A stretch of 7,647 bases of DNA, taken from the IMG/VR virus record IMGVR_UViG_2690316243_000010; one strand, written 5' to 3'. Positions 1,350-7,503 of this stretch are shown here, piece after piece (positions within the stretch are counted from its first letter, which is position 1; each line of letters begins with the position of its first letter). The position numbers and the translations under genes are program-made. The notes below the pieces were generated by a model. The model searched no databases. It was not told where the DNA came from and saw nothing but the letters and a program-made list of their open reading frames with translations. The DNA is from a virus (taxonomy: Duplodnaviria; Heunggongvirae; Uroviricota; Caudoviricetes).

Positions 1350-2096
1350 TTACTTCACAACTCCCGGAAAGCTGACATTTGAACGCCAGCTATCCCAGTT
1401 AAACGTCACCCACCGACAACCGTTCATGGTCATGCGGTCCATAATCCTCTCACCAAGAAGCGTGCTCATTGCGGCATGATTCAGGTTTGTTAACATCCCG
1501 ACACTGCACAGTGATGCTGTCCGGCGATCAATTATCTGGTGCAATACCACCTGCTCGTTTTTCGTCTCCCGCTGAATGCCTATTTCATCCAGGACCAGCA
1601 AATCAACCCCGCAAAGCTCCTGTAAAAATTTTTCACCGGATTTGCCGTTGTCGTAGCTGTCATGCAACACGCTCATGACATCAGACTCGGTGACGATAAT
1701 CACGCTGCGCCCCTTCGCCATCAGCCGGTTACCCATCGCCGCTGCAAGGTGATTTTTCCCGGTGCCGGTTTTACCGCTGAACACAAAATTCGTGCACCCG
1801 GTCATCAGTTCGTCAGCTATGGATTTGGCCTGGCTCAGCGCGTATTTTTGCCCGTCGTTCTGCACCTGATAATTCGCAAACGAGCATTTGCTGTGCAGAG
1901 GCTGGATGCCCGAACGATTCAGGATTTTTTCCACCCGCAACTGGCGATTCTGGCGGTTAATCTCCTCGCTGCGTTTTCGTCCTTCAGCAAGTTGCCATTC
2001 CCGCCACTCCTCCACCGTCCGGTACGGTGGAACCGCCCCCTGTGGTGCAAGTCTGTGAATACGTTCAAGAACCCCGGCTGCCGCAATGTTTTTCAT
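1350..2096 (-). CDS. DnaC-like replicative helicase loader (AAA+ ATPase; YdaV-like; functional analogue of lambda P)
   Basis: 248 aa. Walker A region FSGKTGTGKNHLAAA and Walker B LLVLDEIG, plus a C-terminal WVTFNWDSWRSNV tail, all closely resemble host DnaC as I recall it. Start ATG at 2096..2094 lies 6 nt after the upstream gene stop, with AGGGGG inside the upstream coding sequence, so translational coupling is likely. Confidence 0.9.
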   Translation of the reverse strand: MKNIAAAGVLERIHRLAPQGAVPPYRTVEEWREWQLAEGRKRSEEINRQNRQLRVEKILNRSGIQPLHSKCSFANYQVQNDGQKYALSQAKSIADELMTGCTNFVFSGKTGTGKNHLAAAMGNRLMAKGRSVIIVTESDVMSVLHDSYDNGKSGEKFLQELCGVDLLVLDEIGIQRETKNEQVVLHQIIDRRTASLCSVGMLTNLNHAAMSTLLGERIMDRMTMNGCRWVTFNWDSWRSNVSFPGVVK

Positions 2097-2102
2097 GCCA
2101 CA

Positions 2103-3167
2103 TCACCCCCTGAATCCCGGCGGAATTTCGGTATCCGGTTCAGAAATATGATTCACACAACGCTGGTTGTTCGTGCCGCTTACCGGGAGCAACCAGGGGT
2201 TTTCAAAATTCCGGTCCGGCCCAAAAAACGTCGTCGCTCGCTGAACAAATTCCGTTCCCGCTTTCCCGGTCGCCGCCAGGTATCTCGCGTAACGCCTCAC
2301 ACCATCCAGCATGGTCTCTGGTGGCACCCCCTCGCGCAATCTGGCCTTCCAGGCACTGAATGCGGATTTCTTCGGGTTTGCCCCGGCACGCAACGGGTAT
2401 TCCCGCCAGACCTGTTCGAACACATCCGGATAATCCACTCGTCCCACAGGCTGCCCGGTGTTTTCCGGGGCTACCCGATCGGCTTCCCGCTGAATGGCGG
2501 AATCGGCTTCAGGCTGCTGCAGTTGGAGTGATTGCTCCGGCCTTGCGGTCATCACCTGCTGCACAGCGCCCGAATCGGCTTTCAGCGCATACGCTGAATC
2601 GGCTTCCGGTGTCGAGCCTGCTGGCTGACCAGGATTGACGGTCTGAACATCCCCTGCCTGGTTCGTGGCGTTTTTTACGCCATGGACCATAGTGTTTTGA
2701 TCTTCTTTATCTGTATCTTTATCTGTATCTGTCGTGACTCGTCGTGACATGTGCGTGACATTTCGTGACGCGCCGTGACAATCGCCATTTTGTTCCCGCT
2801 TTCTTTCCCTCTCTCGCTGCGCCCTCTTGCGCTCTGCAGGAGATTTTGCGGTTTGCGAAATATTGCCGTTGTCCTCTTTAAGCACCTGGCGTTTTTCCCA
2901 TCCAGTGATTAAATCACCATCAAGTACCCGCCCCTGCATCGTCTGCAAAATTGAATCAATTACCTCTTCTGTCACGTCGAGCGCACTTGCCAAATCTTCT
3001 GTCGTGACATCAATGTGACCTCGCGTGACATTTCGTGACGCGCTCACCAGGAGGTGGATATACACTGCCATCACTGTTGCAATTGGCTGCCCTGACACCC
3101 TGGCAATTGTTCGCCACTTAGGGTCATTTGGCATGTCATGCCATAATCTGAGCCAGGCGTTAGCCAT
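2103..3167 (-). CDS. Replication initiator, lambda O functional analogue (YdaU/DUF1376-like N-terminal domain with DnaT-like C-terminal domain), about 354 aa
   Basis: Minus-strand ORF immediately upstream of the DnaC-like gene. ATG at 3167..3165 is preceded by GAGGTGA. The ORF-track start is a GTG at 3173 that overlaps this Shine-Dalgarno, so the ATG is preferred. The C-terminal region (YPDVFEQVWREYPLRAGANPKKSAFSAWKARL...) looks like the DnaT/primosomal-type domain seen in phage initiators. The gene contains phased CGTGAC iterons (see repeat features), as lambda O contains ori-lambda. Confidence 0.85.
   Translation of the reverse strand: MANAWLRLWHDMPNDPKWRTIARVSGQPIATVMAVYIHLLVSASRNVTRGHIDVTTEDLASALDVTEEVIDSILQTMQGRVLDGDLITGWEKRQVLKEDNGNISQTAKSPAERKRAQRERERKREQNGDCHGASRNVTHMSRRVTTDTDKDTDKEDQNTMVHGVKNATNQAGDVQTVNPGQPAGSTPEADSAYALKADSGAVQQVMTARPEQSLQLQQPEADSAIQREADRVAPENTGQPVGRVDYPDVFEQVWREYPLRAGANPKKSAFSAWKARLREGVPPETMLDGVRRYARYLAATGKAGTEFVQRATTFFGPDRNFENPWLLPVSGTNNQRCVNHISEPDTEIPPGFRG
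2705..2728. repeat. 12-bp tandem direct repeat, two copies of CTTTATCTGTAT, AT-rich
   Basis: Directly seen: CTTTATCTGTAT at 2705-2716 and 2717-2728, immediately left of the first CGTGAC cluster. Encodes the TDKDTDKD low-complexity linker of the initiator. Confidence 0.8.
2733..2779. repeat. Iteron cluster A: five CGTGAC copies at 10-11 bp spacing (candidate prophage origin of replication)
   Basis: CGTGAC at 2733, 2743, 2754, 2764 and 2774. Helical-phase periodicity. Located inside the initiator gene. Confidence 0.75.
2971..3043. repeat. Iteron cluster B: CGTGAC-family repeats at 10-11 bp spacing, including an exact 20-mer shared with cluster A
   Basis: GTCACG (inverted) at 2971; CGTGAC at 3003, 3024 and 3034; TGTGAC at 3014. 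The 20-mer CGTGACATTTCGTGACGCGC at 3024-3043 is identical to 2754-2773. Confidence 0.75.
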
Positions 3168-3238
3168 ACTCACCTCTTCTGATACCGAATCTTTTTACTC
3201 ACGAGTTGCCGGGAGCGATTCGATATGGCTATTGTCAG

Positions 3239-3664
3239 TCAATGTACTGCCACAGCATTTCCTGCCGGGCCACCACGGTTCATCTGATTGAAACCGGCGA
3301 TTGCCACTGCGACAAAATCATCAGCGTCTCTCACCAGTCGTTCATGCGTCTCCACCAGTTCCCGAAAATAAGCTGAACTGTGGCTGCGCATTCGAGCCAC
3401 CAGCGGAGGTGGCATTGCCCTTTCGATCGCAGGTAACAACGCCTGAATTTTTTCAACAGCGTCAGGGGTGTCTTTATCCAGCCAACGGAAAATCTTTTGG
3501 GTGTTGAGATAAAGTGTGTTGTGCTTGCTGTCGTTATGCAGAACCGGAAACGTCATTCCCAGTTCGAAATAAACCCTGGTTATTTCAGCTGCCGGAACTT
3601 TTTCACCGTCCGGATGCGCCCAGGCTTTCATCGCCATGCGGATGTGTTCATGCTTGATTTTCAT
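3239..3664 (-). CDS. ydaT: YdaT-family protein (reported functional equivalent of CII in a CP-933P-type cryptic prophage), 141 aa
   Basis: N-terminus MKIKHEHI matches my recollection of YdaT proteins. Start ATG at 3664..3662 overlaps the stop of the upstream Cro-like gene (ATGA overlap), so it is translationally coupled. Position between the cro-like gene and the replication genes mirrors lambda cII. Confidence 0.8.
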   Translation of the reverse strand: MKIKHEHIRMAMKAWAHPDGEKVPAAEITRVYFELGMTFPVLHNDSKHNTLYLNTQKIFRWLDKDTPDAVEKIQALLPAIERAMPPPLVARMRSHSSAYFRELVETHERLVRDADDFVAVAIAGFNQMNRGGPAGNAVAVH

Positions 3665-3924
3665 GAATCAACCCCCGCCGATGGTTGTGTGTTAGCCTGA
3701 AACTCAGCAGGCAAGCCGTCAGTTGGGTTGGGGTAGGTTTTACTGTCAATCTCATGTGGGGTCACCACCCATCCCGTTGCTTCACACCAACGTAATATTT
3801 TTTCTCCTGTAAGTTTTGCACGCCCCGTTATAACGTGGCTGACCATCCCTTGGGATGCGCCAACAATCTCAGCAAATGAACTCTGGGTTATATGAAAATG
3901 ATGCAAATATTCTCCAAGATTCAT
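3661..3924 (-). CDS. ydaS: Cro-like HTH DNA-binding protein (YdaS family), about 87 aa
   Basis: Small minus-strand ORF diverging from the repressor gene. ATG at 3924..3922 is preferred over the TTG at 3951 used in the ORF track, with AGGGCGG upstream. Helix-turn-helix-like segment SSFAEIVGASQGMVSHVITGRAKL. First gene of an operon followed by ydaT and the replication genes. Confidence 0.8.
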   Translation of the reverse strand: MNLGEYLHHFHITQSSFAEIVGASQGMVSHVITGRAKLTGEKILRWCEATGWVVTPHEIDSKTYPNPTDGLPAEFQANTQPSAGVDS

Positions 3925-3960
3925 AATCCGCCCTATGTGATGTGTTACCAATGCATAATT

Positions 3961-4000
3961 AATAGCACTGTTATTTTTAAAAGTAAATAGTGATGCTATT
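3961..4000. promoter_or_regulatory. OR-like operator pair in the divergent promoter region: two 15-bp sites of the AATAGC-N3-GCTATT family
   Basis: AATAGCACTGTTATT at 3961-3975 and AATAGTGATGCTATT at 3986-4000, centres 25 bp apart, in the 111-bp gap between divergent ydaS-like and repressor starts. Same motif family as the 5098-5138 pair. Confidence 0.7.
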
Positions 4001-4035
4001 TCAAAGTGATTAGCAATCTTATTAGAATTGGATGT

Positions 4036-4536
4036 ATGAAAAGAAAATCATTGTCAGACACCGACCTCAACGCCGCCAGAAGACTGAAAGAAATCTGGAT
4101 GGCAAAGAAATCTCAGTTGGGATTGACTCAGGAACGTGCGGCGGAAATTATGGGGTTTTCAACACAAGGGGCGGTAAGTCACTACCTAAATGGTCAAACC
4201 CCACTAAACCTTGAGGCTGTTCTAAAGTTTGCTGGCTTACTGAAAGTTCCCCCTGAGTCAATCAGGCCAGACATGGTAGATTTGCTGCAAATTGCAAGGA
4301 TGTATTGTCGAGAACCACAGCAAGATAACATAGTCGCATTACCAGCAGACACAGAACAAACAGAGGATGAACTACCGTTTGCCGTAGAGCCGATGGAACG
4401 AGATTTAATCCATACGTTCAGAGCTTTTCCGAAAGAAGATCAAGAACACATGCTTCAGGAGATGAAAGATAAAAAAGAATCAATGGATCGTACGGTTGCG
4501 CGGTGGTTAGCTGCACAAAAAGGCCGTCGCGCCTAA
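4036..4536 (+). CDS. paaR2: CI-like prophage repressor lacking an S24 peptidase domain (PaaR2/RacR-type HTH regulator), about 166 aa
   Basis: ATG at 4036 (MKRKSL...) rather than the ORF-track start at 4006. The N-terminal HTH (LGLTQERAAEIMGFSTQGAVSHYLNGQTPLNLEAVLKFAGLLKVPPESI) is lambda CI/XRE-like. The roughly 100-aa C-terminal region is acidic with no Ala-Gly cleavage site or GDSM-type serine motif that I can see. Diverges from the cro-like gene and is followed by the TA pair. Symbol assigned by resemblance from memory. Confidence 0.75.
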   Translation: MKRKSLSDTDLNAARRLKEIWMAKKSQLGLTQERAAEIMGFSTQGAVSHYLNGQTPLNLEAVLKFAGLLKVPPESIRPDMVDLLQIARMYCREPQQDNIVALPADTEQTEDELPFAVEPMERDLIHTFRAFPKEDQEHMLQEMKDKKESMDRTVARWLAAQKGRRA

Positions 4537-4555
4537 ATCAGAGGAGATATGTAAA

Positions 4556-4750
4556 ATGAGTACAGTCCTTTCCCCAATGGTTTCAGAATTTGAGACAGTT
4601 GAGCAAGAAAATAGTTACAACGAATGGCTGCGGGCCAAAGTAGCAGCAAGCCTCGCGGATCCCCGCCCGGCGATTCCGCATGATGAGGTAATGGCGGAAA
4701 TGGAACAAATTATTGCCCAAATTGCTGCTGCAACTCACAGAGGTGAATAA
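4556..4750 (+). CDS. paaA2: Antitoxin of the ParE-family toxin (PaaA2-like), 64 aa
   Basis: Small acidic protein. GAGGAG Shine-Dalgarno at 4541-4546. Stop TAA overlaps the toxin start (TAATG at 4748-4752). Sits immediately upstream of a RelE/ParE-fold toxin gene. Confidence 0.8.
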   Translation: MSTVLSPMVSEFETVEQENSYNEWLRAKVAASLADPRPAIPHDEVMAEMEQIIAQIAAATHRGE

Positions 4751-5040
4751 TGTTACCCGTTTTATGGCTACCATCTGCTCGTGATGATTTGCGCCAGATC
4801 GTAGCCTACATAGCTAAAGAAAATCCCGCGGCAGCACGCAGAATGAAAATTCGAATTGAAACATCCGTTTTGCCGCTCACAGAGCATCCTTACCTGTATC
4901 CTCCAAGCGAGCGAGTTCTTGGTCTTCGTGAAATTGTAACTCATCCTAACTACATCATCCTTTACCGAGTAACAGCATCAAGCATAGAAGTAGTAAATAT
5001 TGTGCATTCTCGAAGACAGTATCCAGGCAAAAACAGTTAA
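4750..5040 (+). CDS. parE2: ParE/RelE-superfamily toxin (ParE2-like), 96 aa
   Basis: Size, 1-nt overlap with the upstream antitoxin, and sequence character (basic C-terminal region ...IVHSRRQYPGK) are typical of ParE/RelE toxins. Followed by an intrinsic terminator. Confidence 0.85.
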   Translation: MLPVLWLPSARDDLRQIVAYIAKENPAAARRMKIRIETSVLPLTEHPYLYPPSERVLGLREIVTHPNYIILYRVTASSIEVVNIVHSRRQYPGKNS

Positions 5041-5056
5041 TTATTCCCGCCGACAG

Positions 5057-5078
5057 AACCACCTTAGGGTGGTTTTTT
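5057..5078 (+). terminator. Rho-independent terminator of the repressor-TA operon
   Basis: Stem AACCACC (5057-5063), loop TTAG, stem GGTGGTT (5068-5074), followed by a T run to 5078. Begins 17 nt after the parE2-like stop. Confidence 0.8.
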
Positions 5079-5097
5079 CTTGCCCCAACAAAAAACA

Positions 5098-5138
5098 ATA
5101 GCGATGCTATTTACATCAAAAAAAATAATGATGCTATT
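5098..5138. promoter_or_regulatory. OL-like operator pair: AATAGCGATGCTATT (perfect palindromic arms) and AATAATGATGCTATT
   Basis: Sites at 5098-5112 and 5124-5138, centres 26 bp apart, immediately downstream of the terminator and upstream of the rightward small-gene operon. Same motif as the 3961-4000 pair about 1.1 kb away. Confidence 0.7.
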
Positions 5139-5319
5139 GTTTCAGGCGTCAACCCACCCCGCCCCACAGAATGCAGGGCAATACTTCGAGTTACCAGACA
5201 GTGGTCAGGGGTTAAGTAGCCAGCCCGAGGCGTAAGAACATGACGGCAGGGTTCAATCTTTAACTATGCAGCAGGTTTTTTGTTCCGCCACCCCGGCGTT
5301 AAGGGGAAATGAGGTCAGC

Positions 5320-5472
5320 ATGGATACTATCGATCTTGGCAACAACGAATCTCTGGTGTGCGGCGTGTTCCCTAACCAGGATGGAACGTTTACCGCCATG
5401 ACGTATACCAAAAGCAAAACGTTTAAAACCGAATCTGGCGCGCGTTGCTGGTTAGCCAGAAACACTGACTGA
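5320..5472 (+). CDS. Small prophage protein, YdaF-like (DUF1391-type), 50 aa
   Basis: ATG at 5320 with GAGGT Shine-Dalgarno 4 nt upstream; the longer ORF-track start at 5266 lacks a Shine-Dalgarno. Stop overlaps the next start (TGATG). Position and size match the small genes left of the repressor in Rac-type prophages. Family assignment from memory, moderate. Confidence 0.6.
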   Translation: MDTIDLGNNESLVCGVFPNQDGTFTAMTYTKSKTFKTESGARCWLARNTD

Positions 5473-5849
5473 TGAGGCTGACGATGGAATTTAAAGATTT
5501 ACCGTCTGATGTACAGAAAACAGCAGCTCATACATTGCATTCTGTGCTGCGAGAAATCGGGAAAGATATTGCAAGCGAGCCAGCAAAAGATCTGGCCCGG
5601 AAAATCAAGACCGCTTTCGTTGAGCTTTATAATGTTGGCACTGACTCTGAAACTGTCGAGACCAAGACCGTAAGTTCACCAATATTCTCACTTGAGCCAA
5701 GCGTATTATCAGGTGAAATATGCACCGAGATTTCCAGCGAACTGCTTCCGGTAATACGAGAAGCAATTCGCCGTCGCGGTTTGGATGGAAGTTATGATCA
5801 TGACGTTCTGCAAGTTCTCAGGACAATGGTGACTTCACTGGGGATTTGA
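5472..5849 (+). CDS. Hypothetical early-left protein, 121-125 aa (start at 5472 by coupling, or at 5484 with a GAGG Shine-Dalgarno)
   Basis: ORF coupled to the upstream small gene. Acidic and not Arg-rich, so not an obvious N-type antiterminator. No family recognised. Confidence 0.55.
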   Translation: MRLTMEFKDLPSDVQKTAAHTLHSVLREIGKDIASEPAKDLARKIKTAFVELYNVGTDSETVETKTVSSPIFSLEPSVLSGEICTEISSELLPVIREAIRRRGLDGSYDHDVLQVLRTMVTSLGI

Positions 5850-6018: not shown

Positions 6019-6218
6019 ATAGATTTCCTTCTTGGTTATTCGGGATAAGAAGGATACCACCTCGCCTGACGTGGTTAAAAGCAGGCACACAACGCGAAAT
6101 GACGCGGCGGTAAGTATGGCGGAGTTATTCCTTCCCCGTTGAGGACACCGGGTTGTCAGGTTGACCATACGCTTAAGTGACAACCACGCCACAACACTCC
6201 ATGTTGATTGGTACCTTT

Positions 6219-6259
6219 GGCGGCATCAGTTTCATTGCTGGCTGATGTCCGCCCTTTTT
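6219..6259 (+). terminator. Rho-independent terminator, + strand only
   Basis: 11-bp stem GGCGGCATCAG (6219-6229) pairs with CTGATG(T)CCGCC (6242-6253) with one bulged T and a 12-nt loop, followed by CTTTTT. The opposite strand has no U run after the hairpin. Confidence 0.7.
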
Positions 6260-6260
6260 A

Positions 6261-6427
6261 AAGTGAATTTTGTGATGCGGTGAATGCGGCTCAGCGCACG
6301 CGGCACAGTTAAAAAGCGATTAGTTCCCCCGTATCGGGTGGTTATGGGTTTCCCTGTATCCGGCGTTAATTGTTAACTGGTTAACGTCACCTGGAGGCAC
6401 CAGGCACCGCATCAACAAAGTTCACTT
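6261..6427. repeat. Imperfect 22-23 bp inverted repeat flanking a 122-bp repeat-rich segment
   Basis: Left arm AAGTGAATTTTGTGATGCGGTG at 6261-6282. The reverse complement of the right arm at 6405-6427 is AAGTGAACTTTGTTGATGCGGTG (21 of 23 positions, one indel). The interior holds GTTAAC-TG-GTTAAC (6372-6385), hairpin CCTGG-AGGCA-CCAGG (6390-6404) and direct repeats CCGTATCGGG / CTGTATCCGG. Confidence 0.6.
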
Positions 6428-6746
6428 CGGTGATGAAAGGAAAGAGAAAATGTTGAATGTAGCTATTGAAAACCAGAACGGGTGGAATTATAGTGCACCT
6501 GCACCTTATAAAACGGGTGCCGGGCGTGGAAACCCGAACGTTACTCGAGCGCATAGCCGCGCTGAAGCGGTTTTTTTATGCGTAATGCACAGCTCCATTC
6601 AAATTATGGTGGGATGTGCAGGGCAGTCGCAAGACTGGCCGGGTTCTCGAGTGACCGGTATTTCCACCCCTGTACGTCTCACCACCCTTATGGTCGTGGA
6701 AAACCTCGGTGGTGAGTTAATTAACTTATCACTCGAGGATGCCATC

Positions 6747-7304
6747 ATGGCTACTATCCCTGCCCTTTCTCACCCTGACGTAACCATCGAAAATGGTCGC
6801 GCTGTCACTACGTCTATTGCGATCGCAGAGTTCTTTGGCAAGCGTCACGACAATGTGTTACGTGCCATCGCAAATACTGAATGCTCACCTGAATTTAACG
6901 CCCTCAATTTTGAGGACGTCACCTACACTGACGCCAAAGGCGAAAAACGCCCGATGTACCAAATCACCAAAAACGGCTTCGTTTTCCTGGTGATGGGATT
7001 CACTGGCAAAAAAGCCGCTGCATTTAAAGAAGCCTACATTGCTGAGTTCGATCGCATGGAGGCCGAACTGCGCCAGAATAACACCCCACCCACTGACAAA
7101 ATAATTCCAGGCGATGGCCGCACCCTGGTTGTTCACTTCGACGAACGCGGCAACATCAGATTCACCGAAACCGTTCCTGATGGCGCACGGGTCTGTACCA
7201 TGGAGACTTTCCGGTTTTATCTGGAAGAACAGGGATGGACTCTTGTTAACCGGGGCGCAATTAAAAATATGACTGTAGAGCAATTACTCAAAATTCATTG
7301 TTGA
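6747..7304 (+). CDS. Rha-family phage regulatory protein (Phage_pRha domain), about 185 aa
   Basis: ATG at 6747 with GAGGA Shine-Dalgarno 7 nt upstream. Sequence block AIAEFFGKRHDNVLRAIAN...MYQITKNGFVFLVMGFTGKKAAAFKEAYIAEFDRME is characteristic of Rha/ORF6N-type phage regulators as I recall them. The in-frame upstream extension to 6450 has a possible Shine-Dalgarno but non-protein-like composition, so the start is uncertain. Confidence 0.8.
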   Translation: MATIPALSHPDVTIENGRAVTTSIAIAEFFGKRHDNVLRAIANTECSPEFNALNFEDVTYTDAKGEKRPMYQITKNGFVFLVMGFTGKKAAAFKEAYIAEFDRMEAELRQNNTPPTDKIIPGDGRTLVVHFDERGNIRFTETVPDGARVCTMETFRFYLEEQGWTLVNRGAIKNMTVEQLLKIHC

Positions 7305-7314
7305 GGACGCGATA

Positions 7315-7503
7315 ATGGAAACGTTATTACCAAACGTTAATACGACTGAAGGTTGTTTTGAAATTGGTGTCACTATCAGTAACACGGTATTTACTGAAGA
7401 TGCCATTAACAAGAGAAAACACGAACGGGAGTCATTAAATAAAATATGCATTGTTTCAATGCTGGCTCGTTTGCGTCTGATGCAAAAAGGATGCTGGCGA
7501 TGA
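7315..7503 (+). CDS. Small hypothetical protein, 62 aa
   Basis: ATG at 7315 with GAGG 8 nt upstream, right after the Rha stop. Its stop overlaps the next start (ATGA at 7500-7503). The coupling supports it being real; no family recognised. Confidence 0.45.
   Translation: METLLPNVNTTEGCFEIGVTISNTVFTEDAINKRKHERESLNKICIVSMLARLRLMQKGCWR

Follow-up and report, generated by a model that had tools for sequence, protein, structure and literature searches.

Looping of DNA between OL and OR by an octamer of lambda CI was reportedly worked out by Dodd, Shearwin and colleagues, and the DicA/DicC switch of the Qin prophage, together with its promoter dicBp, is said to have been originally described by Bejar et al. 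The immunity region of CP-933P (Sp12) from E. coli O157:H7 comprises paaR2-paaA2-parE2, ydaS-ydaT, the promoters PR933P and PRM933P, and PL933P with the operators OL1 to OL3 (Jurenas et al. 2021, PMC8630535). There, PaaR2 and YdaS both footprint the divergent promoter region, and each represses PL933P about 100-fold (PMC8630535). In solution PaaR2 reportedly forms octamers, and an analogy with lambda looping was drawn by the authors for CP-933P; the protein protects a continuous 78-bp stretch, in which they see four equally spaced palindromes, and the paaR2 mRNA has been shown experimentally to be leaderless (PMC8630535). The YdaT operator has been defined as TTGATTN6AATCAA (PMC9986795). In Qin, the ydfA-dicF-dicB transcript starts at dicBp, operators have been described at both dicCp and dicBp, and deletion of dicA raises dicBp expression 22-fold; antirepressor-based induction has been described for DicA and for Gifsy repressors (PMC10448788).

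The DNA analyzed here (the window, i.e., the whole stretch of 7,647 nucleotides) is a lambdoid prophage immunity region, drawn opposite to the lambda map. Its genes, RNAs and YdaT site are as follows:

1350-2096, minus strand: DnaC-like loader
2103-3173, minus strand: replication initiator
3239-3664, minus strand: YdaT, CII analogue (Pfam YdaT_toxin, 5e-9)
3654-3671: YdaT site, TTGATTTTCATGAATCAA, a perfect match to TTGATTN6AATCAA at the ydaS stop / ydaT start junction
3661-3924, minus strand: YdaS/Cro-like HTH protein, 87 aa
4036-4536, plus strand: HTH repressor, 166 aa
4556-4750, plus strand: PaaA2-type antitoxin (Pfam PaaA2, 3e-23)
4750-5040, plus strand: ParE toxin (Pfam ParE_toxin, 1.8e-17)
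5320-5472, plus strand: ydfA (DUF1391)
5484-5849, plus strand: gene of no assigned function
6206-6254, plus strand: DicF-like RNA (38.8 bits, below the Rfam gathering score of 48 bits)
6501-6689, plus strand: isrK and C4 RNAs (isrK 61 bits, C4 antisense RNA 77 bits)
6747-7304, plus strand: Rha-family gene
7315-7503, plus strand: dicB homologue, named from the annotation of relative L001

The regulator, PaaA2 antitoxin and ParE toxin form a three-gene operon divergent from ydaS-ydaT, which is the CP-933P-type layout, and the antitoxin and toxin genes appear from the sequence to be co-transcribed with the repressor. The likeness to CP-933P takes in the whole order of ydaT, ydaS, repressor, PaaA2-type antitoxin, ParE toxin, terminator and PL, as well as the YdaT site at the ydaS/ydaT junction; in CP-933P, the control of a PRE-type promoter sits where the window has this site. 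Reading ydaS-ydaT as a toxin-antitoxin pair was dismissed on published evidence (PMC8630535, PMC9986795).

Judged from sequence and an AF2 monomer model, the repressor is a lambda-CI-like N-terminal domain joined to a PaaR2/DicA-type helical C-terminal domain. Over its first ~90 residues it is a homologue of the lambda CI N-terminal domain (E 3e-9), and Foldseek on the repressor model gave 37-40% identity and an rmsd of about 1.9 Å over most of that domain. When this half was compared with the PaaR2 N-terminal-domain structures 7nkv and 8c3k no match was found, lambda CI being matched instead, and in this respect the repressor differs from its CP-933P counterpart. The basic N-terminal arm of lambda CI is retained, and acidic residues are also retained in the alignment at the positions that we take to be lambda E34 and D38. 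In the model, a predicted disordered or flexible linker (residues 93-112) is followed by a short helix and a long helix (residues 119-165).

Homology to PaaR2 does not run the full length of the repressor, which aligns only over its C-terminal ~64 residues, where it shares 41% identity with a close homologue of PaaR2. The same module, shared with CP-933P, is 29% identical to the resembling domain of DicA and recurs in a modular family in which it is combined with differing HTH domains (alignment A1). PaaR2 itself (MQKKEIRRL...) was recognized through primers in the supplementary tables of PMC8630535, in which operator sequences were not found. No solved structure of the PaaR2 C-terminal domain was found, and a literature search on citations of the PaaR2 N-terminal-domain PDB entries gave nothing relevant. 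Domain search and the AF2 model revealed no S24 peptidase (lambda-type C-terminal) domain in the repressor, so that induction would have to run via an antirepressor, whereas lambda, with its unrelated S24 peptidase fold in place of this short helical module, is induced by RecA-stimulated cleavage. The exact protein is annotated in Shigella sonnei. Relatives P0013-P0023 are ~244-aa proteins with a lambda-like HTH, a second HTH and the same C-terminal module, and locus L048 has two tandem repressor genes (2821-3625) for a PaaR2-like protein of 123 aa and one of 132 aa; these arrangements suggest frequent shuffling and perhaps dual immunity specificity.

The original prediction held that a 15-bp operator motif recurs twice at 5098-5138, as a second pair beyond the repressor operon. 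Searched on both strands with up to three mismatches, AATAGCGATGCTATT had six matches, which fall on four positions of the 7.6-kb window (3961-3975, 3986-4000, 5097-5111 and 5124-5138), i.e., in two control regions only. Dinucleotide-preserving shuffles (n = 200) gave a chance expectation of 0.17 matches, and 0 of 200 got to 6. The region is AT-rich, and recurrence of AT-rich sequence by chance would be one explanation of the repeats; however, no shuffle reached the observed count, and in 55 loci the sites keep both their positions and their arms while their centres vary, by which this explanation is ruled out, its probability being negligible. The operator consensus is best given as AATAG-N5-CTATT. 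A search of the accessible literature for six exact operator sequences found nothing.

The operators, with the promoter and terminator elements around them, are the following:

3959-3987, minus strand: PR, -35 TTTACT (3987..3982), 17-nt spacer, -10 TATTAA (3964..3959), placed by alignment with PL
3961-3975, unstranded: OR1, overlapping the extended -10 of PR; minus-strand reading AATAACAGTGCTATT
3986-4000, unstranded: OR2, with perfect arms, overlapping the PR -35 and abutting the PRM -35
4000-4028, plus strand: PRM, TTCAAA (4000-4005)-17-TAGAAT (4023-4028), from a promoter scan
4009-4023, unstranded: possible weak OR3, ATTAGCAATCTTATT, 8/10 arm positions, between the PRM -35 and -10
5055-5081, plus strand: intrinsic terminator of the repressor-paaA-parE operon, hairpin and T-run, dG -15.1 kcal/mol, z -3.3
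5097-5111, unstranded: OL2, AATAGCGATGCTATT, perfect palindromic arms AATAG/CTATT, final two bases within the PL -35 hexamer
5110-5115, plus strand: PL -35 hexamer TTTACA, called in relatives L001 and L003 and read in the window
5118-5125, unstranded: A8 run within the PL spacer, between OL2 and OL1
5124-5138, unstranded: OL1, AATAATGATGCTATT, one arm mismatch (AATAA)
5132-5140, plus strand: PL extended -10 TGcTATTGT, read directly from the sequence
5143-5319, plus strand: transcribed leader, ~180 nt between PL and ydfA, start of the early-left (dicB-type) operon

Both sites of the second pair are thus real, with the left one starting at 5097 rather than 5098, and one copy has the perfect palindromic arms that had been noticed. 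The pair indeed lies directly after the terminator of the repressor operon, whose hairpin and T-run follow the parE stop codon, and ahead of the rightward operon, with ydfA starting ~180 bp on. The 26-bp spacing given for it needs correction to 27 bp (start to start). An equal number and spacing of sites in the two pairs was not borne out: OL has two sites in every locus and OR has two strong sites and at most a weak third, and the spacing within the OR pair is 25 bp in the window. The weak OR3 is confined to the subgroup with this repressor, plus L045. Upstream of 5097 we sought an OL3 and found none in any locus, the T-run of the terminator occupying that position. The lambda pattern of three operators per side is therefore absent, and CP-933P likewise differs in having three OL sites against the two of the window. 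As compared with lambda, the sites are 15 bp long with different half-sites.

At the divergent promoters, OR1 overlaps the extended -10 (TGcTATTAA) of PR, the promoter from which ydaS-ydaT and the replication genes are driven. The centre of OR2 is at ~-43 relative to the predicted PRM start, as it is in lambda (about -43). Since the PRM -10 ends 7 nt before the repressor ATG, the repressor mRNA is predicted to be leaderless, a further likeness to CP-933P.

PL and PR align well, with operators and hexamers in the same register. Read in this register, the second pair overlaps both the -35 and the -10 of a promoter that lies past the 3' end of the repressor operon and points outward; OL1 runs from within the PL spacer through the TG of the extended -10 (5132-5133) into the -10 hexamer TATTGT (5135-5140), taking in its first four bases. 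A consensus promoter scan called TTTACA-17-TATTGT with TG at the equivalent place in L001 and L003, and also a terminator equivalent to 5055-5081 in L003. The scan did not call PL in the window (TTTACA-N19-TGcTATTGT), because the A8 run makes the spacer 19 nt there. On the minus strand, a promoter-like TTGACG-16-CATTAT (5152 to 5125), pointing toward parE and overlapping OL1, was called in L001; the scan of L003 does not call it, and it is probably a chance occurrence.

Among relatives, the A-run ranges from A5 to A9, so that the promoter spacer comes to 16-20 nt and the operators are 24-28 bp apart, and its length varies even among loci with the same repressor (L001-L012, L044 and L056-L063), which accounts for the 24-28 bp range of OL spacing in identical-repressor loci. 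Loci without an A-run are nearly all fixed at a 17-nt spacer and 25-bp operator spacing. Slippage by which PL is tuned or silenced could explain the variation, or some of it may be due to errors in assembly. With its 19-nt spacer and 27-bp spacing, the A8 run may leave both PL and pairwise cooperativity weaker than in the 17-nt/25-bp relatives. A stronger form of this reading, which we regard as rather unlikely, is that PL is attenuated in this genome, with OL1 and OL2 two bp off the family register, as a decaying control element of a cryptic prophage whose sites are still intact. Of 47 relatives, 41 have a 17-nt spacer, and most loci with the exact repressor have one of 19-20 nt; IS1 insertions downstream in exact-repressor genomes and an IS end at the left edge of the window fit with decay; on the other hand, the extended -10 TG motif is kept, and the two operators and the genes for repressor, antitoxin and toxin all remain intact. 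A promoter with an extended -10 is less dependent on its -35 hexamer and less sensitive to spacer length.

Relatives were gathered by a viral contig scan and an exact-protein look-up, and a genome contig scan with the repressor yielded no confirmed relative. The comparison covered L001-L047 (repressor 77-100% identical) and L056-L063 (exact protein; n = 55). In all 55 loci the first site pair lies at -75/-50 from the repressor ATG and the second at about +1048 to +1089, and across them the operator arms are conserved and the central 5 bp variable. AATAG-N5-CTATT is absent in relatives with a different DNA-binding domain, which have palindromes of their own at both OR and OL: of the ACTTTAAAAGT type in L050 and L053, and of the GTTTAGTTA type in L048, which encodes a PaaR2-like protein and is the only locus with that type. 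The operator of CP-933P, of the GTTTAGTAA type, likewise differs from that of the window. Compared segment by segment with L048, L050 and L053, the window's ydaS, OR, repressor N-terminal domain and terminator-OL block have no homologous counterpart, whereas the repressor C-terminal domain, paaA, parE and the leader are 71-96% identical, as is ydfA in L050 and L053. Operators thus change together with the repressor DNA-binding domain in heteroimmune relatives, and such a joint switch of two non-adjacent islands is the mark of operators that are matched to a repressor. OL stays matched to the repressor despite the conserved toxin-antitoxin genes in between.

These patterns also bear on which protein reads the sites. 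That only the Cro-like YdaS, or a PaaA2-ParE complex, recognizes them, and not the CI-like repressor, is very improbable. YdaS also represses PL933P in CP-933P (PMC8630535), and in heteroimmune loci a change of operators is accompanied by a change of ydaS; the same holds for the repressor N-terminal domain, however, and in CP-933P PaaR2 and YdaS act on the same regions (PMC8630535). PaaA2 has been reported to be without any DNA-binding motif, which speaks against the complex. By analogy with CP-933P (PMC8630535), the YdaS-like 87-aa protein probably binds the same operators as the repressor, after derepression.

Taken together, sequence and analogy make it very probable that 5097-5140 is the OL/PL of a lambdoid immunity region, corresponding to dicBp in Qin and to PL933P in CP-933P: the promoter leads into ydfA, the DicF-like RNA and dicB, and on these grounds would be the PL/OL equivalent. 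The OL analogue of the original prediction is upheld by the promoter overlap, the conservation in 55 relatives, the co-switching with the repressor DNA-binding domain and the published experiments on CP-933P PL933P and Qin dicBp. With the OL/PL layout already shown experimentally in these two close relatives, the finding is correct but ordinary. Counting against it are the lack of a PL call by the promoter scan in the window and prophage decay (the IS end at 1-31, and IS1 in the PL operon of close relatives), through which the sites could be functional relics.

As in CP-933P, OL/PL repeats the elements of OR/PR and the leader past PL is conserved. Resemblance to Qin lies in a repressor gene followed by a repressor-controlled promoter that there drives ydfA-ydfB-ydfC-dicF-dicB, in the homology (89-95% identity) of ydfA and of the final ~40 nt of the leader, in a repressor that has no RecA cleavage domain, and in operators that flank the -35 and overlap the -10. 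Qin differs in its DNA-binding domain and operator sequence, has no toxin-antitoxin pair between repressor and PL, and has its OL and OR only about 0.5 kb apart. With lambda, the window shares a homologous repressor N-terminal domain and operators on either side of the repressor operon.

In the mechanism that we propose, dimers of the CI-like repressor would bind the 15-bp operators, in each of which the half-site centres are 10 bp apart, and adjacent dimers would bind cooperatively. Because OL2 overlaps the PL -35 and OL1 the extended -10, their occupancy would exclude RNA polymerase from PL and silence the early-left operon, i.e., ydfA, the DicF-like RNA, the Rha module and dicB. The same repressor would keep PR off and activate PRM from OR2, PL/OL being what looks like a near copy of PR/OR with the same promoter-relative layout, and the upstream terminator would insulate PL from PRM transcription. 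Bridging of OL and OR via the PaaR2-type C-terminal domain might be added to this explanation, which does not need it.

That bridging had been the further suggestion of the two operator pairs: a repressor octamer would join the OL and OR pairs, looping 1.1 kb as lambda CI does and tightening repression of both PR and PL, in a manner compatible with the OL/PL assignment. By analogy this is plausible, if somewhat short of probable, and it is not a new idea, being already in print for the PaaR2 system (PMC8630535). Each side has two strong sites, the regions being 1111 bp apart from OR2 to OL2 (the 1.1 kb of the window compares with about 2.3 kb between OL and OR in lambda), and the C-terminal 64 residues resemble those of a close homologue of PaaR2, the protein reported as octameric and for which looping was raised (PMC8630535). 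The predicted linker, helix and long helix would also be compatible in shape with an oligomerization module. Against this, the octamer state is published for PaaR2 only, an S24-type lambda C-terminal domain is lacking, and without an OL3 a lambda-style OL3-OR3 contact is impossible. The drift of OL spacing in identical-repressor loci argues against a tight geometric constraint, and since PaaR2 covers continuous DNA with four equally spaced palindromes in CP-933P (PMC8630535), its octamer does not require a loop. A more elaborate version, in which the chimera of lambda-CI DNA-binding domain and PaaR2-DicA-type helical module octamerizes and bridges two-site OL and OR over this distance, while the slippage-prone A-run (A5-A9) tunes PL strength and OL1-OL2 phasing as a heritable dimmer on a toxic dicB-type operon, is in our view unlikely. 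Were looping to occur, a lambda-like loop would be achieved with an unrelated C-terminal domain.

With this system, the prophage switches of the DicA/PaaR2 family gain one more immunity specificity, and the accepted picture of lambdoid immunity regions is left unchanged. Its CI-homologous DNA-binding half and PaaR2 oligomerization half would offer a convenient natural test of whether cooperativity or looping travels with the C-terminal module.

Several minor features were observed along the early-left operon. The leader is 86-96% identical across heteroimmune loci (rows L013 and L038 were left out of this alignment), with conservation starting a few bases past OL1, and it holds a short ORF (MTAGFNL) that is fused in frame to ydfA in some relatives. 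An Rfam scan of 5040-5320 had no match, and no known nut-like, put-like or other RNA family was found in the PL leader. The DicF-like RNA has a terminator-like hairpin at 6222-6249, and a sub-threshold STnc100-like match lies at 6266-6419. A P1 immI-like module spans 6466-7304 (5805-6656 in L001), in the order of a TTGAAA-17-TATAGT promoter-like site, c4 target sites, isrK, C4 and the Rha-family gene; it may be the antirepressor module for a non-cleavable repressor. RefSeq has a single 283-aa Rha ORF spanning the RNA genes, and the ATG at 6747 is more likely the true start.

The prophage is decaying and has been degraded differently among strains. Exact-repressor genomes (L056-L061, at about 4460-5160) carry an IS1 copy inside the PL operon, downstream of a 121-aa gene, and the window has no IS1 insertion at that position. 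Bases 1-31 of the window have matches at thousands of sites in genomes and plasmids of E. coli, which break off at base 32, as would be expected of an insertion-sequence terminal inverted repeat, presumably that of IS1. At 111-309 the sequence is masked (N). The replication initiator gene contains two clusters of CGTGAC(A) repeats, ~10-11 bp apart (2728-2779 and 2998-3045), and a TCTTTATCTGTA tandem pair at 2704-2727, which from their sequence look like origin iterons within the O-like gene, as in lambda.
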